Notes: generated by a model not told the origin, from the sequence alone. 64,000 bases of DNA from Psammoneis japonica (GCA_008632985.1 QPGO01000001.1:528404-592403); one strand, 5' to 3'. Positions 12,957 to 64,000 are shown, counted from the first letter of the stretch. Made by a program: numbers and translations.

Positions 12957-15900
12957 CGTGTCTGACTGTTGGTGGATGGCAAGCGGATGCAAGTGATCAA
13001 AATGTCCTTTGACCAGTGGAGAGCGCAAATGAAGGACGACATTTGGGGTCATTTGTTCCGTGGCGCACTGCCCACTCAGCATCAAAGGGGCAGGAGCAAA
13101 AATGAAAACCATGTGATTTTTGGAGCAAAGTGTTTGGAGCAGAGCGGCTGCGGACTTTTTGTTTGTGGCGCTGCGACTGTTGCAGATTTGTGTTGCAACA
13201 TCTTGTTGGGCAAGTGGTGTCAGCGGCCGTTGTGCTGGAAATGGCGGCACTGGCATCGAGGCGTTCTTGGAGACGGTTGAGTTGATTGCAAAAAGGTGGA
13301 GATGAGCTGCAAGAGGGTTGTTGGTGTGGCCACACCAAGTTTTCAATTTTGGGGTGTGCATCCAAACACGACTGGCAAACAGTTTTTTCAGCGTGCCCAT
13401 TTCATCTGCAGCAGCTGCCAGCCCCACATTGCAGAGTGGAGTGTGACTTGCGTTTTGCTTTTGCTTTGCCATCTGCAGCTGCAGCTGCTTTTTGTCAATG
13501 TTTTGGAGGCAGGTTTGGCCAGGGCATTCTTTGTGACAGCTCGACTGGCCATGCACCAGCACCAGCTTGGGCTGCAGCTCTTGATCTGCTCAAGTGTTGA
13601 CCCCACAGGCGGGGTGTGCCAGAGCACCATCAGCAAGGGGGGGGGGGTGTGTTTTCTTGCACATCAAAAAGGAAAGATGCAAATTTGAGAAATGGCTGAA
13701 TGTGCTGCCAAAAAAGAGCAGAGGTTGGAGTCAAATAAAAAAATGAAGCCTGGCCACCCACCTGCTGAGCTTGAGATGGTGGTGAAGTGCAAGCCTCGTG
13801 AAGTCGACGTTGGAGCGCCAGGTGAAACACGCAACTTCTCAGCCAGGGGCAGCACAACAAAAAAAATGACAAGCCTTGGAGCAATGGGCACTCTTGTTGT
13901 CACACTCAGGATGCAAGGCATTGCCAAGCTCTTTGGCATGACCCTGGTTGTTGGGTCAACAAAGGGGCTGTGGCTGCCTTTCATCCAAGCAAGGTGCCAT
14001 TGCAGCCAGGACTTGTGTGGCCTTGGAGCACATTGTTGTGCCGCACACAAAATGAGAGTTGAACTGTCTTGGCTGGGTTTTGCAATTCTGCCTCAGTTTT
14101 GCAGCCACACCTTGTGTGTGTTTTTCTGTGCAAGCTCTTGTGCAGATGTCGCCTTTCTCTGATGGTGTGACGATGGTTCCTGCCTGCCCATTCAGACCAT
14201 TTGTTGTCAACATGCCCCCAGCATGCTGTGATCATTGGCAATCTCATGCAGTGGCGAAAATGATTGGCATCAAGCTCTCTTTTGGTTTGTTTGCTTGGCA
14301 CTCTTCTGTGGTGTCTTTCCTTCTCATGTGCAAAGCTTCCCCAAAATTTTCAGTGCAAACCCTGTGTGTTCTGCAAGTTGTTTCAGATTCTCCACGCCTC
14401 TCAAGTGGTGCCAACAACCCCCCTTCTCTACCTGTCATCAATTCAAGTTCCCCGCTTCACAAGGCAAACAATCTTCTGTTGTTGCTGCTCTCAAAAGCTT
14501 GAAATTGAGACCAACTCAGTGTGCACTGGCTTTTCTTTTGCATGCAAACAGTTGTGCTGCACAAGTTTCAGTGCTTTTCTGCATGTCTCAAATGTCATTT
14601 TGGACAACCTTCTGCCCATTGTCTGCTTGAGTTCTTTGCTCTGTGTGGTGAACAATTCTCCTTTGTTGTTGTGCTCCCACAAGACCAAATTTGAGACTGA
14701 CTCAGTTGGTGCTGGTCAATTGTGTGCTGCTCTTTGGCTTCTCATGTTGAATTTTTTCCAGACTGCTCATTTCACCTTGCCACCAGATCTGATCCCAAGA
14801 GAAATGTTGCCTGCAGCATTGAATGCTTTGCTTTTGAAATCTTGTTTTGCTGGCCCTGTTTTTGTTGCTGCCAGTCACTTCCGGTGGGCTCCACAGTCTT
14901 GTGACATCAATCTTCACACTTGCCATTGTGCACCCCTGCTGCATCACAGTTGCTGCTTGCTCTTGTTTTGCACTTTTTTCTCTGCATGGACAGCTGTGGT
15001 GTGATGCCATGTTGCTCTTTTTTAGATTTTCAAAAAGTGCAATGACAACATGAGTTGGCATTGTCCTGAGCAAGGAGCACTGTTTTGCTGTGCTCAATCA
15101 AAGCACCTCAAATTGGAAAAAGATGTGCCAAATGAGCACTTTTGCATTGGAAGCCACCATGGCTGAAAGTTCATGCAGAGCCAGCAGCTGACCCAGCAAA
15201 CCTCTTGGAAATGTCAATCCCACAAGGAAGCTGAAAATTCAAACACAAAGCAAAAAGGAGCTTGCTTGCAGCAGCCCAAAACTTGCTCAGGCCCAGCCAG
15301 CAGCACATTTTTAAATCCTCCATGAAACAGAAGCCAAACAAGATGAGTGGCCACCCACCCAGAGCCTGGCCCAGACAACATTTTCTGGACAGTCCAAGAA
15401 CTCTCAACCTTTCCTTTGCTTCTTTTGACATTGTCATCATCATCTCCTTTGTGATGTTGCCATTTTGCCAGTCTTGGCCATCATGACAATGTCCACATCG
15501 AGGCTGGCACTGCCGCATCCAGGAGGGCACACATTGTGATGCCCACCAAAGTGCACCCCATCTGATTTTGGCTGGAGAGCAATGACTCCCTGTCTGTCAT
15601 TGAGCTGCCATCCATGGAAAGAACAAAAACAACAGCAAGGTTTGCACAAGGCTGCCAACCAGCTGCAGAACACTGCCCAGACTCTTGGGGATTTTTTTTT
15701 CAAAGAGGAGCGCAGTTCTTAACCAACACAAGATTGTGGAACTTCTCTTTTGCAACTGCCAAAACATCTGTGGTTGCACCCAAATCATGTTGCTTGCAAA
15801 AGAAAAGGTGCAGCTGTCACTGCAGTGTCTCTTTTCTCTTTTGATCTTTGCTCGCACACACTGTGCATCTTGCACGGGGTGCTCAAAGACAGCCCCGTTG

Positions 15901-18900
15901 CAGCCACACACAGTGGTGCCAGCCATGGACACCAAGCCCAGCCCACCAGGAACCAGATGAAAACTGTGCTGCCATGAGTGACAGCTCAGCAAAAAGCCCC
16001 GCACCTTGTGGACAAGGCACCAGGGTGCTGCACCACACACACCACACAAACCAAAACAGAGGCAAGAGGAGCTCCGTGTGCCCCTGAGCAGGGTTGCAGC
16101 TCCCTGCTTCAATCTCCCAGTCACATCAATGTGCTCAACAATGGAGGGTGCCACAGCCAAGTGCAATGGCAGCAAAAAATGATGCCCAACACACCGAGGG
16201 AAGTCATGACACACTGCAACCTCCCCACAGCCACCTGTGCACCAGCAGTGGTGCCTGTGTGGCCCACAATGATGGCACAAAAGAGCAAAAAAAAAAAAGA
16301 TGATGAGCGAGGTCAAAGCAGTGACAAGCAACAAAGCTGCTTTATGTCAGTGGCTTTTGTGGACAAATTGGCATTTGCTGTGCCCAACGCCTGGGCCCTC
16401 CCGCCGCATCGCCTGTCGCCGCACGCAGATGACGCAGACAGACGTGCCAGATTTGGATTGCTCTTTTGTCACATCACGTTTTTTTTTATGCAATAAATTG
16501 AACGATGAGATGTGTCTGCTTTCACATTTATGCTTGTGCCGCGATGAGATGCGGGTGTCATGACCCCAAATGCCTTCAGCCGTGTCAAGGATGGACTCAT
16601 CGGTGGAGAGAGGTTGTGACGCATCGAGTTTGCCAGTTTGCAGCACATGTCATGCATTTGTGTAGCTGTTGCGGTTTTTGCCAAGCACCAGAGGCATGTC
16701 ATCAAGAGCCAATGGGAATTTCACCACTTTTCGACGTCAGCTATACACGCCCTCAGCTTCTACATGGGTTTCTACGCACCTTCTCGCACTGATGTCGCCC
16801 TTCTCAGACGGTGTTGATTTGGCTCCAACAAGCCCATTCTGCCCACGTTTACCAATGGTACATCCTTGTTGCAGCATGATGAGCAAAGTTCATCAGTGGA
16901 AAACGACGAGTGTCCCGGCCTTTTGGTTCGTAAGCTGGTTGTTATTTCTCGTAATTTTCTGTTGTCTCAGAAAATTTTCTACACAGGTTCTGGCACAAAT
17001 TCTACGCGGATCTGCAGATGCTGCTGACGATCTACATGTCACTTCCCCGGCCTACTTTTATCCTTGCGAATCGGTTCTCAACGCCACTTCTTTTCCTTGC
17101 CATGCAATCAAGTCCTTCACTCTTTATGGTGCAAGTGCTGCTTCTGTTGCGGCCCTTTTCAGCAAGAATGTTGGTCATCCTTCGGAGTCATTTGATTGTC
17201 GTCGATTTGCTGCTCCCATCGGTCTTTCTGCACAAGATCTGGCATTGTTTCTACGTGCCACCTCTGACTGTCTACATGTCACTTCTCCGGACTGCTTTTG
17301 TCCTTGCCAATCGGTCTTCAACCTCTCTGCTTTTCTCTGCCGTGCAATCAAGTGCTTCGCTCTTTGTGGTGAATGTGCTGCTTCTTTTGCGGCCCTTTTC
17401 AGCAAGAACACAAGTTGTCCTGTGGTGTCATTTGATGGTCTTCAGTTTGCTGCTCTCAGCAGCTTTTCTGTGCAAGACTCAGCATTGTTTCAACGTGTCA
17501 AGAATGTTTTCTCCGATGACCTGCTCGTCTCACCTTCAAGGCTGCCTTTGTGGACCATTTTAAAAACCTGTCTGAGTGCAGTTGTCCGTTGCAGTTGTGG
17601 TGTGCCTTCTGTGGCTGTCATCAACAAGCATGCAATGAATCCCTCATGTGAATCATTCCTTTTAAGTTGTCTTGGCGGGGTGTCATCTTCTGGTGACACC
17701 CACTCCAGCTGATCCCATGCCAGCTCCTGCCGCACTTGGCTGTGTGCTGGGAGTGTGGGTCAGCCGGCACCGGCCTGGCTGACAAAGGAGTGACAGCACT
17801 TAAAAAATGGATCTGTTTTTTTTTTTAATGGGAATTTCACCACTGCACATGCAGCAATGCAGAATGCCGCAATGCCAAGTGTTTTTGCAGTGTTGAAGGA
17901 ATGACTCACTCCCGCGGAGCACACTTTTCAGTCTGGCCAGCAAATTTTTCTATGCGATTTCTACGTCCCACGCAGAGTTCTACCGGCAGGTTGCCTTGGC
18001 ATTTGCAAAAAGCACCCTCCGCCCCATGATGGTGTCACGCCCTGCTCACGCTCACCATGGCACCGGCTGCACTGTCGTTTGTTGTGCTGAGCAGGACTTG
18101 GTCAGCTTCCATGCAACATGGGTTCATCTCTTTCGAGAGGAAAGTCAATTGACAGGCGTCATGAAGAAGGCCTCTTTTCATCTTTCTGGGGCACTGTTGC
18201 CTCACTCAAGACAACTGTCAAGTGCACAGACACTTTGGAAAAATGGCATGTCATGCAAAGACACAATGAATCGTTGATGACCGGGGTTTGTGTGAAAGTG
18301 ACAGATCACAGGAGCAAAATGTAACCACCAAGGGAGAGAATCTTTAAGCGTCAAAGCCAAGCTGACTTTGCAGAAGCAGCGGCCATCAAATCAGCTGTGC
18401 GCAGATCCCCACCTTTCCTGACAGGCTGCTGCTCGGAGTGGGTGTGTTTCACCATCCTTGTTGAAACAACAAGATTCTGTGATCATGTGATCATCCCAAG
18501 GCTCTGAGAGAATTGTTTTCAAATGGCTGGGAATCCAAAATGAAGTGGACAAGACAAACAGGCAGCAATTGAGAATTCTTGAAGAACCAACAAGAATGGA
18601 TCGCCCAAGTGCCAATCAGATGCTTCTTGGCATTGCCCCAAAAGGCACTTGCTGAAAGCAGACACAATTGGAAATGAAATTTCTCACAAAAATGCCCTCA
18701 TCTGTCAACAACCAGCTCCACACCGAAAAGGAAGAAAGGCCATCATGTGCTGTCTTTAAAAAGAAGAACTCAGTGCGGAGCCACCCTGCAGGGAACCATT
18801 CAGTTAGTCTGGAATCCCTTGGAATGGGTGCGCACACTGTCAAACCTTCAAAAGGAGTGAGGCAAAGAATGTGAAGGGGGGTGCCTCATCCATGAATCTA

Positions 18901-19260
18901 GAATGAGCCCAAGTCTCAGAGCACTCGCGTTGGCGAGCATCATTCCCAGGCCTTCCATGCACAGAGAGGCAACAAAGAGAAGCCTTGTGTCAACTTGAAA
19001 GGCTTCAATTTTGTTTCTCTGTCAAGCGTTGTTGACAAATCGAAAGACAAGAAAAACAAGGGGCAAGCACAGATTGTTGCAGACACTGATCTACCGTGTC
19101 TTTGGTCGATGAAACCAAAAAAATGCGCAAGAAGTGTGCAACGATTTTGAGGCCGTTGCGATCGACAGAGCACCCAAGTTCACATTGACAACGCTCAAGG
19201 GCGGTGTCGAAATGCTGGTGCAAAAGAGGTTTGGTTGTGTGGGGAGGTTTCAGAGGCACC
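12957..19260. repeat. Highly degenerate TpA-depleted repeat/transposon remnants (unclassified)
   Basis: Near-absence of TA. Related motif GATGTCGCCYTTCTCWGAYGGTGT at about 14146 and 16791. No recognisable intact domain. Confidence 0.55.
17032..17500 (+). repeat. Tandem duplication, 240-bp period
   Basis: CTACATGTCACTTC at 17032 and 17272. Shared TTGCGGCCCTTTTCAGCAAGAA. The second unit carries TA->TG changes (CTTTATGG->CTTTGTGG). Confidence 0.8.
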
Positions 19261-19267
19261 ACACAAT

Positions 19268-19663
19268 GACGGGTTCCAATCCCAGGTGGGACTCCGTGTG
19301 ACATTGGGCCCGTAGACTTCTACGTGCGAGCTCTGTGTTAAAATTATGAATTAATAAAAACACAAATGATCGCCAACAGAAAAAGAGGCAATTTTACGAA
19401 CGTATCTCCTCCTTCACACTTACAGTACATGAACAATAGTTTGCATGGGTATATTCTACAGACATTAAAGAATATACCCAGCGTTTTTTCATTGTCATAA
19501 ATGTTGAAAATAGAAAGCCTTTGGCTTCGCAAAATAGGAAGTATGAAACAATTTCGTAGAATATCACACGTAGCCATCTACGTGCGCGACATACGGCGCG
19601 ATCCAAAAACTATTGATGTCACAGTTCAGCACTACGAGGTCCCACCTAGAGCTGGAACACGTC
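19268..19663 (+). mobile_element. MITE, GAC-TIR family, copy A (young, TA-rich)
   Basis: Imperfect TIRs GACGGGTTCCAATCCCAGGTGGGAC / GTCCCACCTAGAGCTGGAACACGTC; 4-bp TSD CAAT. Confidence 0.9.
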
Positions 19664-20760
19664 CAATGGCAGAGGTCAACACAGGCTCACAACCTGTTAG
19701 AGACTCCAATGTGTCGCGCGGCTGTCACCGCTTTTCTTGTTTGTCCTCGGCAGAGTGATTCAAGCCAGGAGACAAGACACAACAGGACCAAATCTAACAG
19801 GCAGGAGTGGAGATGGCTTTGCTGGCACTGCAGGAAGCCCTGCTCCCAAACCCAAGCTGGACGGCAGGCCAGAGGGTGGGAGAGGCAGGGGCGATTGACT
19901 GTCTGGAGCCCGGCTTGCTGTTGTTGGGAGAAGAGTCATTCTGACTCCCGTGCAATGTGCAGCACTTTCAACGGGAAGGAATTGGGAATCCCTCTTTGCA
20001 GATCTCACGAGGACAGCGGCTGTCACTGTTTTTCTCGTTTGTCCTCAGCAGAGTGATTCAAGCTGGGAGACAAGACACAATGGGACCAAATCCAACAGGC
20101 AGGAGTGGAGATGGCTTCACCAGCACTGCAGGAAGCCCTGCTCCCAAACCCAAGCTGGACAGCAGGCCACCAGCACCACCCACAACAGCGCGGCAATGCA
20201 GTGGAGGACCTGTGACTTGGGCGGGAGGGTGGGCTGCATCTGGTGCCGGGGTGGTGACCAGTGGCCGCTGACGCAAGGATCCAATGGAGAACAGCGATCG
20301 GGATGGGTTTTACCTGGTCTGGCGGAGGATCCTCTTTCTTGCAGTGACGGATTTGTCAGGTGAGATTAAAATCCATTTGGCCTTGGGGTGTTTTGTGTGG
20401 GTCTGGGGCCCCCATTGCAGAAAACATTTGGCCAACCGACCGCGCGGCATCTTCAGCGGTGCGTGCTCGGACGGGATGGCCACATGGGGTGATTTGGCCA
20501 GTTCTGCATCGGTGCATGAAGCCACAAGCGCCAAGATTTGTTCTGGGGACAAACAGTGTTAAAATGTTGCAAAGAGGCAGCAGTGGTCAGTGATTGAAGG
20601 CGGGAGGCATCGTCAGCAGCGGTGTTCAACGGCCCCGGCAGATGATCGTGCAACGTTGGTGATGGGTGGCATGGCATGGGAGCTTGGCTCGGGGCTTGGC
20701 AGTGGTGGAAGAGCCCTTGTGTTGCCAGTGCATTGTGCCTGAACTGTCAGTGTGCTGCAG

Positions 20761-21229
20761 GATGGGTTCCAGTCCTGGGTGGGACTCCGTGTGACATTGG
20801 GCCCGCAGAATTCTACGTGCAAGCTCCGCAGCAAATTTGCACTGAAATGAAAACATGTGTGATTGCCAACAGAAAAAGAGGCAATTTTACGAACGCATCT
20901 CCTCCTTCATGCTTGGAGCACATCATTGACAGTTTGCCCGGGTGTGTTCTTCAGACATTGAAGAACATGCCCAGCGCATTTTTGTTCTTGCAAATGTTGA
21001 AAATGGCCCGGGTGTGTGTTCTTCAGACATTAAAGAACACACCCAGCACATTTTCATTCTCATGAATGTTGAAAATAGAAAGCCTTTGGCTTTGCAAAAC
21101 AGGGAGCATGAAACAATTTTGTAGAATGTCACACGTAGAAATGTGCGTGCGCGACATGCGACGCGATCCAAAAAACCATTGATGTCACAGTTCAGCAGTG
21201 CGAGGTCCCACCTAGAGCTGGAACGCGTT
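20761..21229 (+). mobile_element. MITE, GAC-TIR family, copy B (inserted in the Ngaro element; internal duplication)
   Basis: Homologous to copy A; TSD GCAG; multiple TA->TG/CA changes relative to A. Confidence 0.9.
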
Positions 21230-23377
21230 GCAGGTTGGTGCATTCCCATGGATCAAAACAATCAGTGGTGGCATGGGTGTGGAGCATGCCACCCACTAAT
21301 TCAAGGTCAGTGTTGGCAATGGAGCCATTGGGGTTGTCGAAGGTTGCCAAATCCATGGTGACATCACGGGGAAAGGACATGTGCCATGCCACAGGGCCTG
21401 AATCCTGCTGGTGCCGGGGCCGACCTTGGGGTGAATGCTTCACCCGGGCCACCCGGGGGACAGCAGTGGGAGTCAGGAGGAGGACACCACCAGCACTGTG
21501 GCCAGCGGCGTCGTGACAGCCGTTCACGGTGAAGTCCAAAGGCGCAAGCTCTTGGATGCGCACAGGACAATCTTTGATGGTTGTGGTGAGATCGCAAAAT
21601 TCATCCAAGACACTGTGCACGGTGGGAGTCAAGCAGACATGGGAGTTGGGCAGGGTGTGATGGAGAGCATCTTGCAGCTCAGAGAAAAGGCCTTGGGAGC
21701 CAGGAGTGGCAAGCAAGAGTGAACGGAGTTCTCCAAGCAACTTGTGGCAGTTGGTGGCGGCAGCACATTGATGGGTTCAGGGGAAGTCCTGGGTGAGAGT
21801 GTCGCACAGTCAACCTGAACGTCGGGTGGTGAGACGCAGTGTCACAGCTTTGGTGTCGATGAGCCATCCGAGGACCTCTTTTTGTGTGGACCAGGAGGCG
21901 TCACCTTTGCAAAGCTTCTTGACAGAGATCGGTTTGGTGTGGCGAGGTGAGTCGTCTGGGGCCAAGGGACAAAAAATGTCGTCAATTGCAGCCATCAGAG
22001 TGTGACGCACATTCAAACAGGCAGCGCGTGAGCCCTGTGCGGCCCCAATGTAATCATCAACATGTGTCTCCACATGAGCAAGGTGATGGCGGTGTCGATG
22101 TCCAAGGTGTGGGTCAGGGACGTTGGGAATTGGGACGGTGATGGTGTCGGGCAGCGGCGGCGGTGTTGGCCGCAACGGCAGGCAGCGACTCATGGCAGCA
22201 TGCTCCAAACAATGAGGTGGTGCCTGGCAGTTGCAAAGGAGGAGTTGGTTGGTGATGTCAGCACCAGTTTTGGTGGTGGTGCTAAAGGCAGGTGGCAAAC
22301 TCTTCCATCCCATTGGCAACTTGGCAGGGATGGCGACAAGTGGTGGCTCGCCTGGCAGACTGGGGAAGGCAATGGCCAGGACCTGTGCATGGTCCAGTGC
22401 CAACGTCATGCAGTGGAATCCGTCGGACATGTCAAAGGCTCTCGGTCCTGAGTCCCCGAGCTGGGACCATTGCCAATGACCCATTTGGTCGTCCAATGCT
22501 CCGTGGCCCAAGTGAAGAGTGCATCTTGCTCTGCTTGACTGTGGCCTCCACGATTGGCGCGGGTGTTGCAATTGGAGTTGCGCTGTCCCTTTAGATGGAA
22601 AGGGAGGCACCACGGATTCCCACTGGCATCCATCGGCAGGGCAATGTTGGCCGCAGCACACCTGTCCTTGACTGCATGGGAGCGGACCCCCGGCCTGGCG
22701 CGAATCTCATCGAATCGCGTGTCGCAGCGCTCATTGCAAATCAACGTGTTGGCACCTGGGCTTGCCACTCTTGGGGGAGTGGTAGGTTGCTGTGGTGCAG
22801 CAGGCGGTTGGGGTGCTGCCAGTCAAGCTTGGTGCGGCAAGACGGCCGCAGGCAAGTCGCACCTCCAATGCATGGCACCTTTGGCAGCCAGGCAAACAGC
22901 GGGTTGTCCTTCAAAGGGCAGGGGTTGGTCAGTGCGTGCCTGGTCAGTGAACCACTGCCCGATCTCTGTCTGGGCCCAACGTTGGAGGTCTGCCGGCAAA
23001 GTGGGGTAGCGCACCATTTGTCGGGCCATCTCGTTGGCACACAAACATCCATCGCACAGCATTGTTGTCCCAGCCAAGTCATGACCACATGCTGGGTTCC
23101 TAAACTGGTGGCGAGGATGACCTGGTGACGCTGCAGCAGGAGTGTTGGGCTCCCTGCATTGTGGTGGCGACCCTGGCTTCATCGGGTGCCTCCAGGATCT
23201 GAGTGTCCGCTGCACTGGGTGCGTTGTCTCCACCATGGATTTGATGGCAGAGTGCGTTGCGGTGCACAATTTGCTCTTCTTGCTTGGGCGTCGTGAGACC
23301 AAAGATGAAGGGATTGATCCCTTGGGCAAGGTCGTCTTGATTGTGTCCAGCAAAATTCTTTTGGAGCAACTTGGACA

Positions 23378-23766
23378 GACGCGTTCCAGGTCCAGGTGGG
23401 ACCTTGCACTGCTCAACTGTGACATCGATGGTTTTTTGAATAGCGTCGTATGTTGCGCACGTACATTTCTACGTGATTTTGGCGAAATTTTGCATCATTT
23501 TATGGCACAATTGTCAGGCGATCCATTCAACAACTTTTGACATTTTTTTCTTCTACGCCATTCTCGAGTGTCTTAAGAATGGTGCAGGGCAGGCATGTTG
23601 TCCAAAACTTCAAGTACGAACAGAGATGTGTGTGCTACAAACTTGGCTGTTTGTTTCATGCTGAAGACAAATGTGTCCATCAACCAGAGTACGAACTGCA
23701 GAGCTCGCACGTAGAATTCTGCGGGGCAAATGTCACAAAAAGTCCCACCCAGGACTGGAACCCGTC
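23378..23766 (-). mobile_element. MITE, GAC-TIR family, copy C (inserted in Ngaro gag)
   Basis: TIRs GACGCGTTCCAGGTCCAGGTGGGAC / GTCCCACCCAGGACTGGAACCCGTC; TSD GACA; same subfamily as copy D. Confidence 0.9.
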
Positions 23767-24922: not shown

Positions 24923-25120
24923 GGTGCCTGACCAGGAGCTTGAGGTGGTGCCAGTTGCTGTTGCCCAACGGGTGGTTGCTGCACCGGTTGATTCATGGGG
25001 GGTTGCTGTCCTTGCAGCGGTGGTGCCTGACCAGGAGCTTGAGGTGGTGCCAGTTGCTGTTGCCCAACGGGTGGTTGCTGCACTGGTTGATTCATGGGGG
25101 GTTGCTGTCCTTGCAGTGGT
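24923..25120 (-). repeat. 99-bp in-frame tandem duplication in the gag-like Q/P-rich region
   Basis: PPLQGQQPPMNQPVQQPPVGQQQLAPPQAPGQA occurs twice. Confidence 0.85.
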
Positions 25121-51511: not shown

Positions 51512-51682
51512 TTGATGATGCACAACTGAGCTGTGCAACAACAGAGAGAGAATTGCTTGCCATTGTGGAGACGTTGAAAGAATTTCGAACAATGCTCCTT
51601 GGTCATCGTGTGATCGTGTGCACTGATCATAAAATCTCACGCACAAACTGTTCAATGCAAAACGCGTGATGTGCTGGCAGTT

Positions 51683-51973
51683 CAATGGCAATCTTTCGTG
51701 CCACAGAGTCATTGTTTCATGATGAAATTGTCTGTCCGTCCACCCTTGGTGAATTTTAATTCTGCGAAAAATGGACTTTGCTGCAAACTGATCAGGCGCA
51801 TTTTTAGAACAACACATTTGCAGAAATGCGCCTGATCAGTCAGCAGCAATGTCCGTTTTTGCAAAAGTTTTGAGATGACAACAGTTTTGGTGCAAAAACA
51901 TGTAGATTCTGTGGACGTCCACAAGCAATTTGTGCGATTTGTGTCACGGGTCATTTTCGAAAGATTCCTGTTG
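51683..51973. mobile_element. Short TIR insertion splitting the Gypsy RNase H end (RW...EEYG region)
   Basis: CAATGGCAATCTTTCG / CGAAAGATTCCTGTTG inverted ends; internal inverted repeat CTGATCAGGCGCATTT...AAATGCGCCTGATCAG; TSD unresolved. Confidence 0.55.
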
Positions 51974-53757: not shown

Positions 53758-56700
53758 TTTGCACTGCATCAGATTTTCAACTCACATGCCTGGCAACACA
53801 CGGACAGTGCGACCATTTTTTCCACAACTTCATGCCACAAATCACCAAACACTTGTCACTCTTCATGCACAATGCACGTTTGATCACTCTGAAGAGGAAA
53901 TTTTCCATTTGTTGCCAGTTTGTGCCAGAGCCACCCTGAAACTTGCAGTGCAAAGTCTTGCTGCTTTCCAACTCCTCCCTCCGACGACCCGAAACCAACT
54001 CGCGGTGAAGCATGAGAATGTGTCAAACAGTGGCGGCACCAGCTGTTGTTGGCTCTGCCACTTTTTGCACCACTCTTCTTTCACACATGCAGGTCAATTG
54101 GCCACGCTGCATGATCACAGCAACAGAAAGTGCAGCAATGGGTGGTGCCATCATTGCAAAGTGCCGATGGTGTTTCCTGCATGGCCATGTGTTGTTTTGT
54201 GAGAGGCACAGGTGAAACATTGGAGGGAGTCTCTGCAGAATGACTCTGTGTGGCCTCCCGGTGCAAACTGGCAATGAATGGAAAATTTCCTCTTCAGAGT
54301 GACAGAACAAGCTTTGCATGCAAAGAGTGATTGGCACTTTGCAGTGGTCCATGGGCAATCGTCCAGCCATGCAGGTGGCTCTTCACAAACTGTGCAGGGC
54401 CCTGGGGCATGCACTGGAACTTGTGCAGAATCCTGTGACAACACAACTCCATTTCTGTGATGACAACAAGCAGCAATGCACGGTCCAATCTGGTGCACTT
54501 TGCATGATGACATGAAAGAGGGAATCCTCTTCTTTCCTTCATTCCTGCTGAAATGCTCCCAATTTGGCATGTCATTTAGTCTTGGCACCAAACACCAGGG
54601 TGCCGCACCCGCATTTTTTCAACAAGGAAATTGTTGTGCATTTGACCAAGAAATTGGTCAACACAATTGATTGCAGTCATTCTGGTCCTCATTCAGGAGC
54701 TTTTGCTGTGATGATGCAAGATCAAAATCTCTTTGACATGTGCCAAAATGAAAACCCAGGGTGGCACACCCGCGCGCGTGAAACAGCTGCATCTCTTTTA
54801 GACCAAATGCTTTGCCATTGGTTTCCCATTGAGACCTCTTCAGAACTTGACACAGAACAACAGTGTGGCATCATGTCATGTCGAAAGTGTGTTGGCAATG
54901 TCAAACAGAGCAGCTGTGAACAGAAATCCGGGCCCAAACAACAGTGTGCTGCAAGAAATGGCCATGCATGTTGCACTTTGATGTGTCTTGACATGGCAAA
55001 CATCATGGAGCCAATGCAGTTTTCATGGATGATCTCTTTCTGTCATTGTTGTGAAGAGGTTGAGTTGCTGGTTTGGTTTCCTGGGGGGCTTTGGTTGTGA
55101 CACATGGCGCAAATGGTTGCGGGCCTTGACTTGTGCCTCCATTGCTGTGCAGTGCGGATGACATCTTAACAGTTGACGACATTGCCGTGGTGAGTTGGTT
55201 TCTCTGTTTTCTCATTTTGTGACATTTGTGTGCTCACCAAAAATGTTGTTTGTGCTTTGTCACAGCTTCACAGGTGAAGCAATCATCTCGCATGGTCGAT
55301 CATTGCATCTGCAATGTCAGCATCTTTTTCATGCCTTTTGAACCATCACAGCACATTCATTTGGGAGCCTTGTGCTTCACCCCACTCTGCATCCTTTGAT
55401 GTGCCTGTTGCAAACACCAAGCTGGATTTGTGACTCGCTTTGTGTCCTTCTTGGGGTCTTGGTTGGCGCAAAATGACGGCATGTCATTTTCTGGCCATCA
55501 CAATTTCTGAAAAGTGCACGCCGCACAAACAAGATGATGCGATGGACCCTCGGGGATGCCCATGATGTTGGCACTTGTCAGACAGCCTCAGCACAGTTCG
55601 AACAAGGTACAATTGTGAGTGTGTTGTGGTTGATGGATGTTTGGGGCGTTTTGACAAACTCGCAGACCTCGCCAGCTCTTTTTGGTGTGTCTGTTTCATG
55701 CATGCAGGTGTCTGGTCCATGGCAAGCCTTCTTCCTGCTGTGCAACCACATTGTCTTCCTTGTCTAAGACATGATGTCACCCATGCCATTTTGGGAGATC
55801 TTGGTGCAGCACCAACAAGTCCAGGCTTTGAAATGGGCAAAATGGGGAGATGGAGGCTTGCGTGGCTGGGATCCTTGCTGGCTCTCAAGTGTGTGGATGT
55901 CACGAACCACTGGCGACACTTGGGGCCATGAAATTTGGCAGCGCAACTCAGCACTTTCTCTGAAAGGTGTTCCAGTGAGTGTGCTGAGATGTGAGGCCTC
56001 AGTGGCTTGTTGTTGTCTGCATTGTTCCATTCATGTTTTCATTTTGCCTGCCATTTTGCCAGCATGGATGTCTGGGACTGTGCGAGCTTGCAGCAGCTTT
56101 CCCAGGCCAATGTTCCACATGAAATGAGTCTTTTGATGTCATTTGTTGATTTGGGGAAATTTGTTTGTGAAACGTTCAGTCTAGCGAGGAAATGGATAAA
56201 ACAATTTGGAGCCGGTTGTAGAAAAGTGATGAAATTTTTGGCGAGCATGCTGTTGTGTGTCAACGGCAGGGACATGGATGTCCAGTTAGATGGGAAGTGA
56301 CACACCCACGTGGTGGCCACAGGGAGCTTGAGACCTTTGCGTTGATGTTGAGGTTTGTCCAACATGCGCAGACAGACAAAAATCAAATGTTAAAAATCAA
56401 CATGGGCAGCCCCTTTGACAGGCCAAAAGTGGGGGAAACTGAATGTCAACTCTCACACACACCACACCGACATGATGCCACATCAACTTTGTTCTGTTGT
56501 TTTGTTCTCCTTTGTGATTCCACTGTTGCTCTCTGTTGTGATCACATGCCAATGCACTTGCTTCTCTGTTGGCTTGTCATGAGCAAGCGCATCTTGCAAG
56601 CGCCATTTTGCTTCCTCTTTGTGGGGTTGAACCTGAATCTTGTGAGGATTTGCCAGCCAATCAGTGGTTGAAAGCTGCAAAGCAACAATCAACCAAAACA

Positions 56701-56771
56701 CAACTCTTGGAAGGAGTGGCTGTAAAATGGCAAGGTGCACAACAATTTCTGTGTCAGAGAAATTGTGGGCC
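53758..56771. repeat. Unclassified TpA-depleted transposon remnants
   Basis: Same compositional signature. Inverted homology CACTCTGAAGAGGAAATTTTCCATT (about 53885) versus AATGGAAAATTTCCTCTTCAGAGTG (about 54278). Confidence 0.45.
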
Positions 56772-56775
56772 AATC

Positions 56776-58913
56776 GACGTGTTCCAGTCCCAGGTGACGC
56801 ACAAAACGACAATCGATTTTGAGTGTAATTTATGCATCCTTTAGTGTATGAAGCATTTTCACACAAAATACTTAGACAGATTGACTTTTTTTAGGCTTGT
56901 AGAGCATGAAAATTTAAATAATTTTTTGAGGGGTATTCAAGTCCTCATGGGATATGTATCATAAACTTCCTCAGTAGACTCAATTCTGATTGTACGTCAG
57001 TAGATTTATACTTAGATTTCTTTGTAGGTAAAAAACCTACCAAATGGCATCGTAGAAAGACACATTTAGGTAACATCCAAATAACGGCCATTTTTTTGCC
57101 GAATATCATCCGTTGTGTCACGAATCTTTTAACGGGGACCCCCCGTAAGTCTGTACATCGCCCGTGGCTGCTTCAGCTCCGCGATAGCTCCGTGAAATTT
57201 TTTTATCACAAAAACAGCAAACCAACCACGAAGATCACCGAGGCCGTAAGGCTTCTTATGACCGCTTTTCCAGCTAGGTTGCCATGCATGTGGATGGACA
57301 GTGACCTCATGCTGAAGGCACTGCAACGTGGTGTCTTTCCATGACCACATAAAGATGACATCTCATCTGCTCTCCGAGGTGCCTCAAATTCACTTGCCCT
57401 CCGAGTAGACGACTGCGGAGGCAAGCGCTGCCATGCTGTTGCTCTGGCGGGTGAAGAACTCCAGCGCAATTGCTGTGAAGCACAGGAGTTTGAAGGGTGT
57501 CATCTTCAAAGAATTGGGAGCAAACATTTCCTGAGCAGCGCGAGGGAAAAGGACGGCACGGCAGCAGTGGAGGCCACTCAAATGTTGCAAGAAGCAGGCC
57601 ACTCACAAAAGGAGAATAACGGTGATGCTGCTCCCCAAGCTTGTGGCAATTCGGAAATGCAGCAAAGTGATTCAGAATCCAAGACTGTTGGTGATTGTGG
57701 ACGCAAAGAACCGGGTGAGAAATTGGTCGACATTGATTGGTCCATTGATTTTTTGCAAATGAGCTGCAGCAGCATGCCGTTGCATGACGATTGAGAGTGG
57801 TTTCTCTGTTTGGAGCCACTTGAGTGTGGCAACAACCATTGTCACATGATTCTAAGACACCAACGCAATGCTTTGCAGAGCATTGCCATTCGTCAACGAT
57901 CGGAATCAAGGCATCTGCGAAAACGCAACACGACTGGCGTGTTTGGTGTTTTTCTCTGTGCGGGAGTTGCTCGAGCACTGCAGCAGCCACTGTTGTGGTG
58001 TAAGACACCAATGCAATGCTTTGTAGAGTGTTTCCATCAGGCGCAACCCACTGTAGAATCGAGAGTTGCAGCATCAAAACCTGGAATTTAGAGCTGCACA
58101 TGCTGGCAAAAACAGCAGCGCGTCCAGTTGCAGTTTTCCCATTTCTGTCCATGTTTGTAACCTTCTGCTGTCAATCCTTTTGACCAAACCTCATCAACAG
58201 GATCAGAACAAATGATCCGTGGGAAAGCATTGACAGCCGGACAGTTGCAACGACCAAACAAACGTTTGTAAGATGCCAGACATTGGCGCAACACGAGAAA
58301 GAACATCAACATTTTGCGACTTGCTCCTCGTGCTGAAATCCTGGTCATCTTCCACACTAGAACCATGCATCATGTGCCGGCATTGCATGCTTCTTTTCGT
58401 CGGAGATTTCTTCCATTTGGGTGGGCTTGGAGGCGTTTGGGGTGTCGCTGCTGATTGGCAACGGCGACATTGATTTGCAATTGTTGTTGTCACAAAACAC
58501 TTTCTGCTGGTGATGCTTTTCGCCAAATGTCCCCAACAGGAGTAGAACAAACGATTTGTTGAAAACGATCGCCAGCAGGACAGCTGCAACAACGTTGGCA
58601 TGCAACAGACTCAAAGGGAAGTTGTCGCGTTGATTGACACGAGAAGGGTTGCGTTCCACTCAGAAAAGTGGCTCAATCGGATGGACGTACAGACTTACGG
58701 GGGGTCCCCGTCAACGCAATGAAAAACACAGATGGCACAACAACAATGACATTGCAACACTCACACGAGTCTTGTCAGTGTTGCAAGACATTTGTGTTTG
58801 TGTGAATCTACACTTTTGGTGGTGAAAGTTTGAACGTAAGTTAGGGACCGCGCAAAAATCGCGCAAATGTCGTTTTTGTGCACGATTTGGTTCACGTGCG
58901 GCTGGAACACGTC
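56776..58913 (+). mobile_element. GAC-TIR-family non-autonomous element (about 556 bp net) carrying a nested TTAA element
   Basis: TIR GACGTGTTCCAGTCCCAGGTGA / TCACGTGCGGCTGGAACACGTC; 4-bp TSD AATC. Confidence 0.85.
57133..58710 (+). mobile_element. Non-autonomous TTAA-type (piggyBac-like) element, 1578 bp
   Basis: 24-bp perfect TIR CGGGGACCCCCCGTAAGTCTGTAC; flanks TTAA (left) and TCAA (right); no recognisable ORF. Confidence 0.88.
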
Positions 58914-58917
58914 AATC

Positions 58918-61900
58918 CAATGTGAAAATGAAAGTGATCTTTTGTGAGCGTTTTGAAATCATGATCAACTGAGTCTCTTTGAAATGTCCAGAGATTCTGC
59001 AAAATGTCTCGTTGCAGATTCTGTGCTGGTCTTTGCATGTGGGTTCGACGCTCTTGCTCTGTCTTCTAAGAAATGCACACATGTTGGGTCACGCAGATTT
59101 GACATGACTGATGTGTGCATTTTGTCACACTCCCTTCAGCAGTGTTGGGCGGAACGGTGATGTGTCCAACAATCTGCCAGCAGAGAAGGAACTTTTTGTG
59201 TCTGAGAAAGTCATGCTGCAGCAGAGGCTTTGTGAACATGTCTCCAACTTGATGTGATGCATCAACAGGACAGATCAAAACAACTCCCTTGTGAACATGG
59301 TCCTTGAAATGATGAAGCATGTTGTTGAAATGTTTGGTGTCTGTGGTTGCATCTTGGGCAGACGTGCCATCTCAAGAGCACTGGAATTGTCCTCAAATGC
59401 CTTGCAATGGACCTTGGGTGTGTCTGAGATGAGCGGGAGTGACCGTTTTCCTTGAGCTCATTCAGAATGTTCACAATTGGAATGGCGCTCCGAAGACTTT
59501 CTGAAAGTGCAATAAATTCTGCTTCAGCTGCACTTGGTGCCACTTGAGTTTGCAATTTGGATGACCATGCAATCGGACATCCTGCAAATGCAATGACGCA
59601 CAGCAACCTGTCCTTGACTTGGCAGTGCTTGTGTCACAGGTTGCAGTTGGCTTGCTCCAATTGCCTGCAAAGTTGGCATTCGCGCAAACTTCCAATGACT
59701 TGTCCTTGGGATGGATCTACATGCTGCGGTCTGTTTTTTGGGAGCTTGCAATTTTATAAAAACAACCTGGATTCTTTTGCTGAATGCACGCACTCACTAA
59801 AAACAAAATTTCGGTGACAGGTCGAACTTTGTCCGTTTCAAAGACACCACAAAATGCACAAACAATGGTTGTGAGCATGCGCAACTTTTACCTTGTCAAC
59901 AGCAGACATGTCCACAGCCAGTCAAATGCCACTCATTGGATTTTCCCAAAAAGTCGCAGCCAATCTGCCATGAGAAGCCCGATTTCAGTGATGGTTGGCG
60001 GTTTTTTCAACCTGGCAACAGGGCATGGGCCGACAAGTGGCATTTGAAGCTTTGAATTTGCAGCTCTCATGCCAGTGCAACAGCCCTGAGAAGGGCTTGA
60101 CGAATGCACAAGTGCTTGGGGGGTGTTCGAGGCAGGTCAAAATGACACAATGAAGTGTGGGAAATGCGAGCCATTTTAAATTAGACCGCAGCACGTAGAT
60201 CCATCCTCAATTGAATCAAGCATGATTCCTTCTTGGGCAGCATTGTGAAGGCACTTGCAAAGCCACGGTGCAGCTTTGCTGTGCGCTCACTTTGGGTCTT
60301 CGGAAAATCAGGTGATTTGATGTGCCACACAAGCAATGTCGGGTCGAGTTCACTTCTCGAGGAAGTTGAGTTTGCCGACCACAGCTCGGCAGTGGAAGCT
60401 CCCTTCAAATGATGAGTCATTCTTGTTTTGATGTGGCATCTTGGAGGAAGGAGCTGGAGTGGATTTGCTGGCTGCTCTTTTCAGCAAGTTTGCCATTTGC
60501 AGCATCTGTTGGATGAGGTGCGGTTGCACATGCTTCACACGACCATCAGGAAGCATCTCGACATTGATGCCGAGGTGGTCTTTGATGCTCCCTTGATCAT
60601 CAATGTCAACGTTTTTGTTCTTGACATCCAGAATTGCTTTGCAGATTGCATCTTTGTCAGGAGAAGCAAAAACACCGTCATCAACACAGTGCACAAACAG
60701 CACGTTGCTTCGGCAGCACAGGCATCTGTCAACATTGGATTGTTTGAATCCAATTCTGAGCAATCCCTCTTTGAGATGTTCTCCCCAAACTCGTCCTGCT
60801 TGCTTTTGTCCATGCAGATTCTTCAACAGTTGCAAAACACAATGAGTCTTGCCATCACCACATTTTGTCTCAATTCCTTTGGGCAATTCCACACACATGT
60901 TGCACTCAATGTTGGCATGTGGATGGGCAAGGATGAAGTCAACTTGGCGTGTGTGCCATCTGTTGAGGATGGATGGGATGAGGATCAATCATGTGGTGCA
61001 CCAGTTTATGACTGGGGTGCATGTGTCAAAACAGTTGACTGCACATTCCTGTTTTCCATGGCGCACATTCAATCTTGCTTTCCACTTGTGTGCTTTCTGA
61101 GTTTTGATGTCTTGCTTGTGTTTCATGGACCATGCTGAAGGCAAGACCTTGACTCCCTCTGGAACTTGATCTCTGGGAATCAATCTCCAGTGTTTGTGCT
61201 TGATGTGGTCATTGACCTCTTTGACTGCTGCCTTTGTAAATTCATCTTGGTCAGGTTCATGCATGGCTTCATCAAAGTGCATGATGTCTTGGTCGGATGG
61301 AGTCACAAATGATGGGGGTTGGCCCATGTCATCTTGGAGACAACAATCTTCCTTGTGCATTGTTTGGCACTCACACTTGGCTGCCCCATGTTTGCTTGTG
61401 TGGGGGCATTGTTGCCAGCGAGTTCTTGTTTGGTGCCTGTGAGCACTTCATCAGGTGAGCCAAATTCTGTGTCCTTGATTTGTTGTGGAATCACAGGTTC
61501 CAGATCAACTCTTGGTGCTTGAGCTGCTGTGGGCTCCCTTGACTCTTCTGATTGCCAAAACATGTTGAATCGACTTGGCCCAGCTTGTTTCTTGAAGCCT
61601 GCTGCAGTCTGCCATTGGGAAAATGTTGGAGGATTTCCAGCAGATGGTCTGACAGTTTCAAAAAAGTCATTGCATTGCAAATGGAATTGTGGTGACATCA
61701 GGCCTGTTTCCAAATTCAAGACTGGTGATGTCAAACTGGCATGTCTTGGTGATGGACTAAGATTGATTCCAAGTCTTGCTCTTTGGCTCCACTTTGGCAT
61801 GCGTCCTCCACCTTGCAATCTGTTGTTCAGAGCACAGACTGGGCATCCGAATTTGTGGTGAGCTTTGACGGAAGCAAACCTTTTGATCAGTGAGGAACCA

Positions 61901-64000
61901 TCAGCGTGATCAGGCAAGGAGTTCCTGATTTCATTGGTGCAACACAAGGTGCTCAGCCACAAGTTCAATTTGATTGCTGATGGCCATCTTGCCTTTGCAT
62001 GGAACAATTGCTTGCATGCTTGTTCTTGCAGGTCGCAAATCTGCTTTTCAGCAGTGCCATTTTGAAAGTGAGCATTTGCTCAACAGCAGGAAATTGTCTG
62101 TCCCTCTTTCTCAACATCTTGGATGAATGCATTGTTGGTGAATCTTCCGTTGTTGGCATGGCAGTGTTTGATTTGGACATGATGTCGGTGAGCAAAGGCT
62201 TTGAATGCTCTCTCAGCCTTCAAGGTGTCCTCAGAGGCAAGTGATCATTGTAAGTGGATGTGGCTGAGTCCACTGCAGTGATCCACAAACACCATCACAG
62301 CCTTGCATCTCTGTTTTGCAGGCCTTCCTTTGAGCTGAGGGACAAATCCAGTCATTGGACTTTTGAGTTGGTCAACAGACACAACTTCTCCCGGTTTTGT
62401 GGCAACGTGTGTGTGCCCTCTGTCTTGCTTGGACTTGGTGTGCCACGGGTGCCAAGTCATGGCTCCACAGATGCACCCTGTGCACTTTGGGTTCTGAACT
62501 TTGGTCAGTCGTCTTGGAAGGACACCAAGCGCTGCCAGCAGTGTTGTCATCTTGAATGATGCACGGCCTGACTGGCAATGCCAACGCAACAATTCTCCTT
62601 GGTCGTCGTCAGTGGCAAGGATGTCCTCATCAGGGATTGCATTGATTGGATCTCAGAGTCTTGTCTGGACTTCTTTGGAAGCAAGATCTTTCATGTTCTC
62701 TTCATTCTCATCAGGAACAGAGTGTGGTGAGTGCCTGTCTTGTTCATTTGCGGGTTGAAACAAAGTCTTCCCACTGTCAATGTTGTTGTGTGCTCCTTGC
62801 ATCTCGTCAGGTCGCAACTTGGCAGAGTCCTTGAAGGAGTCTTGTGGTGCTGCATTGGCATCTTTGTCTGAGTCACTGTCATCAGATGGAATTGCGTGGG
62901 TCTGGTGCATGACTTGCTCAATGTCGTCAACCCTTTGTCACCTGGCACAGAATGGAAGCTGGCCATGTTTGTCACAGGATCCCATGGGATGAAGCGTTGG
63001 CACTTCCTTTGATTCCACATGAGCAGGCAACCGTCTTCTTGGTTGACCAAGATGGTTCCATGAGGCTCAGGCCTGTGTTTGTTTGCCTGTGACTCTGTTG
63101 TTGAGGACAGAACAGACACACAGGTGAGTTTGGCATGCAGAGTGCTTTGTGAATGGTGAAGGTGTGGATTTCGCCATTGTCATTCTCAATTTTCCATTTC
63201 AGCATTCCTCTCCCTTTGACCTTTGGGAGCTCGCCTCCAATGCCATTCACTTTCATCTTGACTGGTTTGAGTTCACTGATGAAGTGCTTGCAATTGTTTG
63301 ACATGGTGCAAGAGGCATGGTTGTCAACGCCAATCATGAAAGAGTCCGAATCACAAGTGGCCTTGTTTTCATGGTTGGCTGAAATGCCTTGGAACAAGTC
63401 CGTTGAATTGCTGGCCACAGGTGTGAAGGCAACTTTGTGGGTTGCTTGCTTTTTGGCCACTTTGGTCAAGTGACCTCTTTGTTTTGCAGTCATGCACCTT
63501 GGACAGTGCCTGCTTTTATTTGGTGGCAAGTCTTTGCACAGCACTTGTGCATCAGCTGGGATTTGTGAAATGATCCACTCACTCAACATCATTGTTGGTG
63601 TCATGACTTTCTTGAATGTCTTGTGAGGAAGGCCGAAAGTGACAACTGGAATTGTTGGTGCCAGCAGAGGTGCCGCAATCATCATGGCCATTCAGGCCAC
63701 AGCAAGGGTTCCAAGGAACAGTGTTGCAATGAGCTTCATGCAGTGTGTCCATGTGAAGAGAGCCCTTGTGACCATTCCAAAGAACAGTCATTCCTCAGAT
63801 CAGACATCCTCGAGGATGGTGGCAAGCGCATTTGCGAATGAAACTTTCTTCAAGGAGTCCGCATTGTCACCTGGCTCTTGTGACTTTCTCAACCTGCAAC
63901 CATTGGTCCATTGTCATCCAGCAGGTGAATGACCCACGTGGTGTGGCATTGACACCAGCAGCACTCGCGGTTGCCATGAGTCTTAAAGTGGTGCTTCTTG
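58918..64000 (-). mobile_element. Degenerate Ty1/Copia (CoDi-like) LTR retrotransposon, 5' part outside the window
   Basis: Protease IGVDNHASCTMSN, integrase (VSVDQL, VFVDHCSG), RT (WKARLN, QVDFILA, LHGQKQAG, FVHCVDDG), RNase H (CANANFAG, SAAEAEFIALS, GDMFTKPL) in Copia order. PPT GAAGGGAG then TG LTR start at about 59129. Confidence 0.9.
59709..60206. mobile_element. TIR element (GGATGGATC termini) inserted between Copia RT and RNase H
   Basis: 24-bp TIR GGATGGATCTACRTGCTGCGGTCT; flanks TTG and TCA, both derivable from a TTA duplication. Confidence 0.8.

Follow-up and report, generated by a model that had tools for sequence, protein, structure and literature searches.

Mutation of TpA to TpG and CpA in transposon-derived DNA of a 64-kb window of the Psammoneis japonica genome

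We analyzed a 64,000-bp stretch of the genome of the diatom Psammoneis japonica (GCA_008632985.1 QPGO01000001.1:528404-592403; hereafter, the window) and found that its transposon-derived DNA has been almost cleared of the dinucleotide TpA, which has been replaced by TpG or CpA, whereas the neighboring genes have been spared. Our data demonstrate a process that acts on DNA, changes A:T to G:C specifically at TpA, treats both strands alike, is sensitive to the flanking bases, accumulates with time in mobile-element DNA, and is both faster than and separable from the decay of CpG. As a whole, these observations are very probably best explained by TpA>TpG/CpA mutation of mobile DNA that is probably silenced, with adenine deamination as the likely chemistry and chromatin state as the putative means of recruitment. 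A preliminary description of this DNA had proposed a distinct, directional A:T to G:C mutator of repeats that resembles neither fungal repeat-induced point mutation (RIP) nor CpG decay, and our analysis bears out the core of this proposal, in that the changes are TpA specific and confined to transposon-derived DNA.

Across the whole window, TA occurs 1060 times, which corresponds to an observed/expected ratio (o/e) of 0.25. CA (1.59) and TG (1.55) are in excess and CG stands at 0.59; AA (1.22), TT (1.21), and AT (0.90) are ordinary, in line with the preliminary statement that these three stay common. The 1-kb bins of 13001-16000, 20001-26000, 28001-30000, 37001-56000, and 59001-64000 mostly contain 1-9 TA (o/e 0.01-0.15), with higher values at or near their edges (13 TA and 0.23 in 23001-24000; 12 TA and 0.16 in 28001-29000; 16 TA and 0.26 in 37001-38000), and the bins located over genes contain 16-59 TA (0.26-0.75). 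The longest gap without TA spans 1266 bp. The earlier count by eye of a single TA (at 13736) within 12957-14428 was exact, as consecutive TAs occur at positions 12955, 13736, and 14429.

The window was segmented with a two-state hidden Markov model (HMM) of the probability of A following T, P(A|T), which was 0.128 for genes and 0.0197 for repeats. The model yielded seven depleted segments (40,733 bp; TA o/e 0.04-0.11, CpG 0.17-0.58, TG and CA 1.50-1.86) and seven normal ones (23,217 bp; TA o/e 0.46-0.86, CpG 0.82-1.10, TG and CA 0.83-1.80), the TA values of the latter agreeing with the claim that neighboring genes are ordinary in this respect. The G+C content (GC) ranges from 0.48 to 0.56 in the depleted segments, from 0.46 to 0.48 in the three large gene segments, and from 0.39 to 0.47 in four small TA-normal islands. 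The depleted segments host a Copia element, a Gypsy element, three of the four aligned copies of a miniature inverted-repeat transposable element (MITE) family, and much DNA without a recognizable protein; the large TA-normal segments host HOOK, FG-GAP, F-box, and TPR/Sel1 genes. The TpA deficit of the transposon-derived DNA is real and lies far above chance level. In addition, loss of CpG accompanies loss of TpA in all seven depleted segments, which fits methylated silent chromatin.

The direction of change can be read from the two retroelements, both of which were recognized by Pfam and by homologue alignment: a degenerate Gypsy element (47541..53343, + strand; reverse transcriptase, RNase H, and integrase) and a near full-length, degenerate Copia element (58940..63652, - strand; gag-pre-integrase, integrase, and RVT_2). 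All Tyr codons require TA. We aligned to the window, by tblastn, 56 Copia polyproteins of at least 1150 aa (of 120 retrieved) and the first 60 Gypsy polyproteins of at least 950 aa (of 120 retrieved), and considered a column conserved if at least 15 homologues were aligned with at least 70% agreement. Among the 470 conserved columns of the Copia element, 23 are Tyr and none of these is kept (14 are now Cys [TGY], 6 His [CAY], and 3 other); among the 639 of the Gypsy element, 31 are Tyr and again none is kept (16 Cys, 13 His, and 2 other). Collectively, Tyr is kept at 0 of 54 positions within 1109 conserved columns (30 Cys, 19 His, and 5 other), and 49 of the 54 positions are now TGY or CAY. 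Control residues are kept at 78-100%, including Phe (20/21), Trp (16/17), Lys (16/17), Asn (14/15), Gln (22/24), and His (20/23) in the Copia element and Gly (39/40), His (13/13), and Asp (28/30) in the Gypsy element. Other TA-containing codons are altered as predicted: GCA has replaced Val codons, CCA or TCA has replaced Leu codons, and ATG or ACA has replaced Ile codons. Since Tyr is impossible without TA and 54 conserved Tyr positions have been lost, the elements were not natively free of TA; judging from their codons, both were ordinary originally and lost TA afterwards.

We also inferred a single-step ancestral codon at every changed conserved column, preferring transitions if several ancestral codons were possible, counting nonsynonymous changes alone, and taking present-day neighbors as the context at codon borders. 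In this tally, A>G is preceded by T in 24/28 Copia and 43/48 Gypsy changes, and T>C occurs ahead of A in 17/17 and 33/38, respectively. Similarly, C>T occurs ahead of G in 11/15 and 14/15 changes, and G>A is preceded by C in 21/29 and 18/21. Transversions number 21 in Copia and 35 in Gypsy, and multi-step changes number 19 and 37. Overall, the two elements show 131 A:T>G:C changes, 80 G:C>A:T changes, 56 transversions, and 56 multi-step changes, a long-term footprint in which several processes are mixed. Changes at TpA account for 117 of the 131 A:T>G:C events and changes at CpG for 64 of the 80 G:C>A:T events; the TpA class is the largest among the polarized changes and is saturated.

These contexts bear on a rival explanation, namely, biased repair or gene conversion, whereby T:G mismatches at TA, originating from replication errors or from heteroduplex between diverged repeat copies, would always be resolved to C:G in methylated repeat chromatin. 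Its nearest analogue is very-short-patch repair of E. coli, which depletes CTAG, or else a thymine glycosylase acting in a TpG·T context. An overactive methyl-CpG mismatch repair would suit the joint appearance of TA>CA/TG and CpG depletion in 7/7 segments. General GC-biased conversion is nonetheless excluded, because A>G is far from equal in all contexts (117/131 at TpA) and AA, TT, and AT stay common. The idea of polymerase-eta-type error-prone repair coupled to methyl-CpG, one of the candidates of the preliminary description, belongs under this heading too and fits poorly, as the WA motif of that polymerase predicts loss of AA, the o/e of which is 1.22. Furthermore, the supply of mismatches from replication errors is presumably too low, and TA loss outruns CpG loss within the same elements (Tyr kept at 0/54; CGN Arg codons partly kept). 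Together with the MITE copies considered below, these data lead us to regard biased repair as quite improbable.

Comparisons among repeat copies within the window (48 alignments, 9259 columns) tell the same story at the nucleotide level. TA faces another dinucleotide in 130 cells, 53 of which are CA, 50 TG, and 27 anything else, and it faces TA in 30 more; the claim that homologous copies differ by TA to TG or CA is confirmed. TG stands opposite CA in 189 columns, indicating a TA or CG ancestor of which opposite strands were hit in the two copies after their separation. For example, 19 TA at 56913-57126 correspond to no TA in the paralogue at 41629-41843 (8 TG, 8 CA, and 3 other), and 16 TA at 19268-19511 correspond to 2 TA, 6 TG, 7 CA, and 1 other at 20761-21004. 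The strands are hit almost equally, with 67 TG and 50 CA as sense-strand outcomes in the Copia and Gypsy elements. The order of TG and CA along the seven depleted segments displays no runs (z -0.34 to +1.26), although this test is weak because native TG and CA dilute it. When paralogue transitions are sorted by trinucleotide, the differing fraction is 0.073 with a 5' T and 0.124 with a 5' C; the copies are usually saturated, and this comparison needs identical flanks, a requirement that TA>TG in one copy and TA>CA in the opposing copy violate.

The MITE family (~400-490 bp, with terminal inverted repeats of ~30 bp) separates loss of TA from loss of CpG. One copy (19268..19662, + strand) is TA normal, with 29 TA and 20 CG in 411 bp, and reads as a young, unmutated family member. 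The other three are partly depleted (23376..23766, - strand; 11 TA, 19 CG), depleted (20761-21228; 7 TA, 19 CG), and strongly depleted with CpG intact (37663..38059, + strand; 4 TA, 22 CG). In other words, 18-25 of the 29 TA have gone with CpG unchanged, and the graded copies (29, 11, 7, and 4 TA) show that TA loss accumulates. The family alignment includes six columns in which TA, TG, and CA are all present. As TA was lost here before any CpG, its loss cannot be put down to CpG decay or to the repair of such decay; the process is independent of CpG decay events, contrary to what biased repair at methyl-CpG would entail. The older long terminal repeat (LTR) elements agree: in Copia, 7 CGN Arg codons are left and 10 have gone to CAN or TGN, as against no Tyr kept in either element, so that TA loss in these elements is more complete than CpG loss.

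MITEs have no RNA intermediate, and since they are affected even so, the process must act on DNA. This consideration is relevant to a further alternative, in which retrotransposon transcripts are edited from A to I at UA and then reverse transcribed and reinserted. Copia and Gypsy are indeed retroelements, and a preference for a 5' U is described as typical of RNA adenosine deaminases in a recent preprint (10.64898/2026.01.13.699255). Against RNA editing, the same changes occur in a family with terminal inverted repeats and no RNA stage, both strands are hit almost equally (67:50), and the resident degenerate copies are saturated, with independent TG or CA outcomes in paralogous copies at the same site (189 columns), which points to mutation after insertion. 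We consider editing of transcripts highly improbable.

The loss of TA would be of little meaning if the bases themselves were wrong or if these transposable-element (TE) families had always been TA poor. Three public sequencing runs, all from one sample, contain the stretch, and we compared the window with 31-mer contigs of one of them (run X1). A contig of 5244 bp with a k-mer depth of 65 shows 0 differing letters over 12001-16266 (4.3 kb), and another of 1301 bp shows 1 differing letter over 28301-29601; both cover TA-free DNA. Over most of the length of the first depleted segment (12782-16737), this one X1 contig alone matches at ≥85% likeness, and in bins 13335-14001 and 15336-16002, where no second contig reaches ≥85%, the summed depths are 65.3 and 68.2 against 65.4 for the contig. 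The reads thus reproduce the TA-free sequence instead of restoring TA. Exact, deep 31-mer contigs imply accurate polymerase-based reads, which would remove a nanopore-style miscall of modified bases; on this ground, we take a basecalling artefact to be ruled out. Noisy long reads would presumably be unable to yield such contigs, nor would miscalls on both strands be expected to strip ~95% of TA from a consensus. The Tyr evidence is at the protein level and is independent of read technology: 54 conserved Tyr are now Cys, His, or other residues, and TA-normal paralogues exist. Run X1 does share its sample series with the probable source of the assembly, and its library type is unrecorded; even so, an artefact or native TA poverty is the least probable of the alternatives that we weighed. 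In the same run, the MITE family has a summed contig depth of 20,000-66,000, compared with ~65 for single-copy DNA, so it probably has hundreds to a thousand or more genomic copies and would be an ideal clock for TA loss.

Depleted DNA retains 193 TA, and these are not random with respect to their flanks. With host gene DNA as the baseline for tetranucleotide density, TTAA supplies 44 of the 193 survivors (36 in gene DNA) at a relative density of 0.70, followed by CTAA (0.42) and TTAG (0.35), and most other NTAN tetranucleotides range from 0.03 to 0.17. ATAT and ATAC have no survivors (57 and 65 in gene DNA, respectively), and GTAT has one (75 in gene DNA; relative density 0.01). Hence, TTAA is nearly spared, and A-TA and TA-T are lost most completely. 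Members of NTAN reverse-complement pairs act alike, TA survival approximates the product of two per-strand factors, and the per-strand neighbor distribution differs from that of gene DNA (chi-square p = 8e-31). The pattern is kept in those 500-bp tiles that have ≤3 TA (62 of 78 tiles; TTAA, 26 of 103 survivors). TTGA and TCAA together make up 6.7% of NTGN plus NCAN in depleted DNA, a low share, so the survival of TTAA is not explained by TA arising anew from TG or CA. Because TA is palindromic, two readings of the flank rule are inseparable from sequence: what matters may be the 3' neighbor of the A (T>C>G>>A) or the nucleotide two places to its 5' side (A>G>C>>T).

The same palindrome leaves room for a modification of thymine as an alternative. 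Here, the T of TpA in silenced DNA would be converted, for instance by a TET/JBP-type dioxygenase, to 5-hydroxymethyl- or 5-formyluracil, which would pair with G and give T>C. T>C before A (50 changes) is indistinguishable from A>G after T (67), and the flank rule could just as well describe which base precedes the T (A>G>C>>T). In dinoflagellates, 5-hydroxymethyluracil reportedly concentrates at TpA and TpC; 5-formyluracil gives rise to A:T>G:C transitions. Nothing in our data indicates such a modification or enzyme in Psammoneis japonica, the X1 contigs contain plain G or C at the affected sites, so that any modification would already have been fixed as mutation, and the authors of the preprint cited above, which concerns the chlorarachniophyte Bigelowiella natans, prefer adenine deamination. 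We consider thymine modification unlikely, while ranking it first among the alternatives to adenine deamination.

We therefore propose, in outline, that TpA is changed to TpG or CpA on either strand of transposon-derived, probably silenced DNA, with neighboring genes spared. An enzyme resembling tRNA adenosine deaminases (ADAT2/TadA type) may convert adenine to hypoxanthine in DNA, and the chromatin state of silenced mobile DNA may recruit this candidate deaminase. The resulting inosine would be copied as G, fixing A:T>G:C. Mobile elements would be disabled by missense changes (all Tyr lost; TA-bearing Ile, Leu, and Val codons altered) and not by stop codons, and the loss of TA-containing signals might disable them further. 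As TAA and TAG are themselves removed, inactivation would proceed by missense, which is the reverse of RIP.

Several considerations weigh against this proposal. The sequence footprint fits slow, strongly biased decay as well as episodic hypermutation. Polarity derives from a single 64-kb window that offers two LTR elements and one MITE family, and from nonsynonymous changes at conserved columns, their contexts being those of present-day neighbors; flank densities are relative to host gene DNA and not to unmutated TE DNA; and run X1 represents one sample of unrecorded library type and may be the very data with which the assembly was built or polished. ADAT2/3 acts on A34 with G, A, or C as the next base, fungal TAD2/3 edits UAG in mRNA, and ADAR prefers a 3' G. 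The 3'-neighbor order T>C>G>>A deduced here does not match these preferences, which counts against a simple ADAT-type deaminase. Lastly, the TA-normal MITE copy (19268-19662) sits a few hundred bases from depleted DNA, between two depleted blocks, so targeting is not simply regional and continuous. Either this copy is very young or the process may be episodic, by analogy with Bigelowiella natans.

The distribution of the segments identified by the HMM is as follows. The window opens with a TA-normal host gene block (1..12772; TA o/e 0.48, CpG 0.98), followed by depleted segment 1 (12782..16737; 11 TA, o/e 0.04, CpG 0.33; no recognizable TE protein), a small TA-normal island (16742-17059), and depleted segment 2 (17061..19305; o/e 0.11, CpG 0.48), with a 240-bp tandem duplication at 17024-17497. 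A second island (19313-19698), which is an unmutated or little-mutated repeat copy throughout, separates the latter from segment 3 (19705..23437; o/e 0.10, CpG 0.55, GC 0.56), in which the MITE copy at 20761-21228 lies. A third island (23441-23712), in part also an unmutated or little-mutated repeat copy, precedes segment 4 (23717..26246; 5 TA, o/e 0.04, CpG 0.58), with a TA-free gap of 1118 bp at 24251-25369. Next come a TA-normal host-gene island between depleted blocks (26247..28189; F-box open reading frame [ORF] at 26565-27014, +), segment 5 (28197..30169; 8 TA, o/e 0.06, CpG 0.17), and a TA-normal gene block (30171..37246; TA o/e 0.51, CpG 0.86) with an ORF at 30263-31753 (-) and a TPR/Sel1 ORF at 33248-37033 (-). 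The 19.6-kb segment 6 (37250..56824; 102 TA, o/e 0.08, CpG 0.41, TG 1.85, CA 1.82) contains TA-free, TG/CA-rich tandem arrays with periods of 33-209 at 45127-45670. The last island (56826..57275; 35 TA, o/e 0.83, CpG 1.01) is again an unmutated or little-mutated repeat copy throughout, and segment 7 (57279..63999; 33 TA, o/e 0.07, CpG 0.43) closes the window. The switch from TA-normal DNA (35 TA in 450 bp at 56826-57275) to depleted DNA at 57279 is abrupt and falls inside a single repeat unit, which is collinear with 38573-42052; this is either a younger insertion nested in the unit or a place within it at which the mutation process stops.

The ORFs in the normal segments are long and unbroken, and Pfam scans identified FG-GAP/Kelch, HOOK, F-box, and TPR/Sel1 among them. 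The first gene block carries ORFs at 127-2778 (+), 4338-6278 (+, FG-GAP), 6725-8422 (-, HOOK), and 10706-12205 (-, FG-GAP); in a protein atlas, the clusters closest to the HOOK and FG-GAP ORFs occur most often in Bacillariophyta (scores of 0.98 and 0.90, respectively), which makes a diatom source likely. The two FG-GAP/Kelch genes are diverged inverted paralogues (71% identity over 1248 bp) that flank the HOOK gene, and their upstream regions are alike as well (9444-9775 versus 6657-6340).

The erasure of TAA and TAG fills the repeat fields with long stop-free frames: 135 such frames of ≥110 aa overlap the interval 12957-64000, those of the gene blocks at 26-28 and 30-37 kb being counted as well. 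Many frames in this interval overlap one another on both strands, and gene finders may miscall those of the repeat fields as genes. We scanned 18 stop-free frames against Pfam and then 105, and no family was found for 97 of the 105. In these scans, no family was assigned to most of the depleted DNA, including 12782-16737 and 19705-26246, and weak matches to Senescence_reg (15978-16496) and Bacteriocin_IIc (44888-45289) were judged to be due to chance. Block 19705-26246 combines an unusually high GC (0.54-0.60) with a moderate loss of CpG (o/e 0.55-0.58); it contains a tandem repeat of 99 bp (24923-25128) and long minus-strand ORFs at 21810-22706, 23573-24562, and 24514-25431, for which Pfam gave no family. 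TE proteins are hard to recognize in the depleted fields because all Tyr has been lost. The preliminary description had listed Gypsy, Copia, Ngaro, MITEs, and satellites as affected alike. We can confirm Copia, Gypsy, and one MITE family; no tyrosine-recombinase match indicative of Ngaro/DIRS appeared in Pfam scans of the window's frames, and short tandem arrays, but no large satellite, were seen in the window.

If the signature extends genome-wide, Psammoneis japonica would be the second example, far removed in phylogeny from the first, of A:T>G:C hypermutation directed at TpA in mobile DNA. The process would then reach LTR retrotransposons and MITEs, beyond viral inserts, and proceed up to near-complete erasure of TA. 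It would suggest a defense logic opposite to that of RIP, i.e., GC neutral, with stop codons removed, inactivation by missense, and a possible loss of TA-containing signals. Strand symmetry, independence from CpG decay, and the TTAA-sparing flank rule offer handles toward the enzyme, and a natural DNA adenine deaminase, if real, would be relevant to both genome evolution and base editing. Depleted fields also pose an annotation hazard, as they yield long spurious ORFs.

Among known systems, fungal RIP (Neurospora and others) changes C to T mainly at CpA, with TpA and stop codons as products and a lower GC as the outcome. As in RIP, we observe dinucleotide-specific transitions confined to mobile or duplicated DNA, with destruction of coding capacity; unlike RIP, the process destroys TpA, eliminates TAA and TAG stops, and leaves GC where it was or slightly higher. 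RIP itself can be rejected as the cause, since C>T at CpA and AT enrichment are not what we find (TpA is lost, and GC is 0.48-0.56 in depleted segments versus 0.46-0.48 in genes). Deamination of 5-methylcytosine at CpG likewise acts on a palindromic YpR step of silenced repeats to yield TpG and CpA, and CpG decay is also present in the depleted segments (CpG o/e 0.17-0.58; 64/80 G:C>A:T changes at CpG). As a sole cause it fails, because it cannot remove TpA and because TA has gone from MITE copies that retain their CpG. Polynucleotide adenosine deaminases (TadA/ADAT2-ADAT3, fungal TAD2/3, and ADAR) share with the process the conversion of A to I, which is read as G, and the preference for a 5' U or T; they differ from it in the 3'-neighbor order discussed above. 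These are RNA enzymes, and we know of no established natural role for them in genome defense on DNA.

A similar signature is present in other deposited sequences. Five of the 240 polyproteins retrieved (P0008, P0010, P0072, P0108, and P0110) are Tyr poor (0.8-1.2%, versus a median of 3.6%) and, as Copia homologues, have Cys or His opposite reference Tyr; P0010, for example, has 51 Cys and 32 His versus 22 Tyr. Six control polyproteins have 0-7 Cys and 3-18 His versus 95-124 Tyr at these positions. Such Tyr-poor, Cys/His-rich polyproteins indicate that the TA-erasing signature is not limited to our window.

The closest parallel is found in Bigelowiella natans, in which TpA>TpG/CpA hypermutation was measured directly in mutation-accumulation lines (Mettrop et al., bioRxiv 10.64898/2026.01.13.699255). 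In that preprint, 231 of 302 new single-nucleotide mutations fell within 186-kb giant-virus and 25-kb virophage inserts, at a rate of ~6e-7 per site per generation; all GC-biased mutations occurred at TpA; and the process, ~1000-fold above background and episodic, was seen in 11 of 15 lines (10.64898/2026.01.13.699255). The preprint also reports 124 genomic clusters of 1-kb windows depleted in TpA and enriched in CpA and TpG, together with a class of low-TpA coding sequences (TpA frequency 0.0018) enriched in reverse-transcriptase and DDE domains (10.64898/2026.01.13.699255). Its authors hypothesize adenine deamination, name an ADAT2-like candidate, and cite a report that amphioxus BjADAT2 edits DNA (10.64898/2026.01.13.699255). 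The preliminary description had known of no account of such a process in diatoms. We likewise found no diatom report of TpA-directed hypermutation in literature searches aimed at the phenomenon, among the results of which only the 2026 preprint on Bigelowiella natans, an unrelated alga, describes it.

The likenesses are threefold. A:T>G:C changes occur on TpA and give TpG or CpA on either strand (117/131 here, all GC-biased mutations there); they are restricted to foreign or mobile DNA with host genes normal (here, Copia, Gypsy, and MITE as opposed to gene blocks); and TpA depletion is clustered and coupled to a gain of CpA and TpG, the low-TpA level of Bigelowiella natans being comparable to the 1-5 TA per kb observed here. 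The differences lie in the target and the stage, namely, de novo mutation in viral inserts of a rhizarian versus a historical footprint in LTR elements and MITEs of a stramenopile, which in Psammoneis japonica is near saturation over tens of kb and coincides with decay of CpG. The process also depends strongly on the flanks here, with TTAA spared; the words trinucleotide, flanking, and context are absent from the main text of the preprint. It is conceivable, though we hold this only tentatively, that diatoms and chlorarachniophytes have in common a natural, enzymatic TpA defense that deaminates adenine in silenced mobile and viral DNA, is tetranucleotide specific (A-TA and TA-T preferred, TTAA immune), acts ahead of CpG decay and independently of it, and runs to saturation, a mirror image of RIP that might extend across the stramenopile-alveolate-rhizarian lineage. 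By its dinucleotide signature, the Psammoneis japonica window appears to display the same phenomenon in another lineage and another class of targets, to which it adds saturation, independence from CpG decay, and a flank rule.

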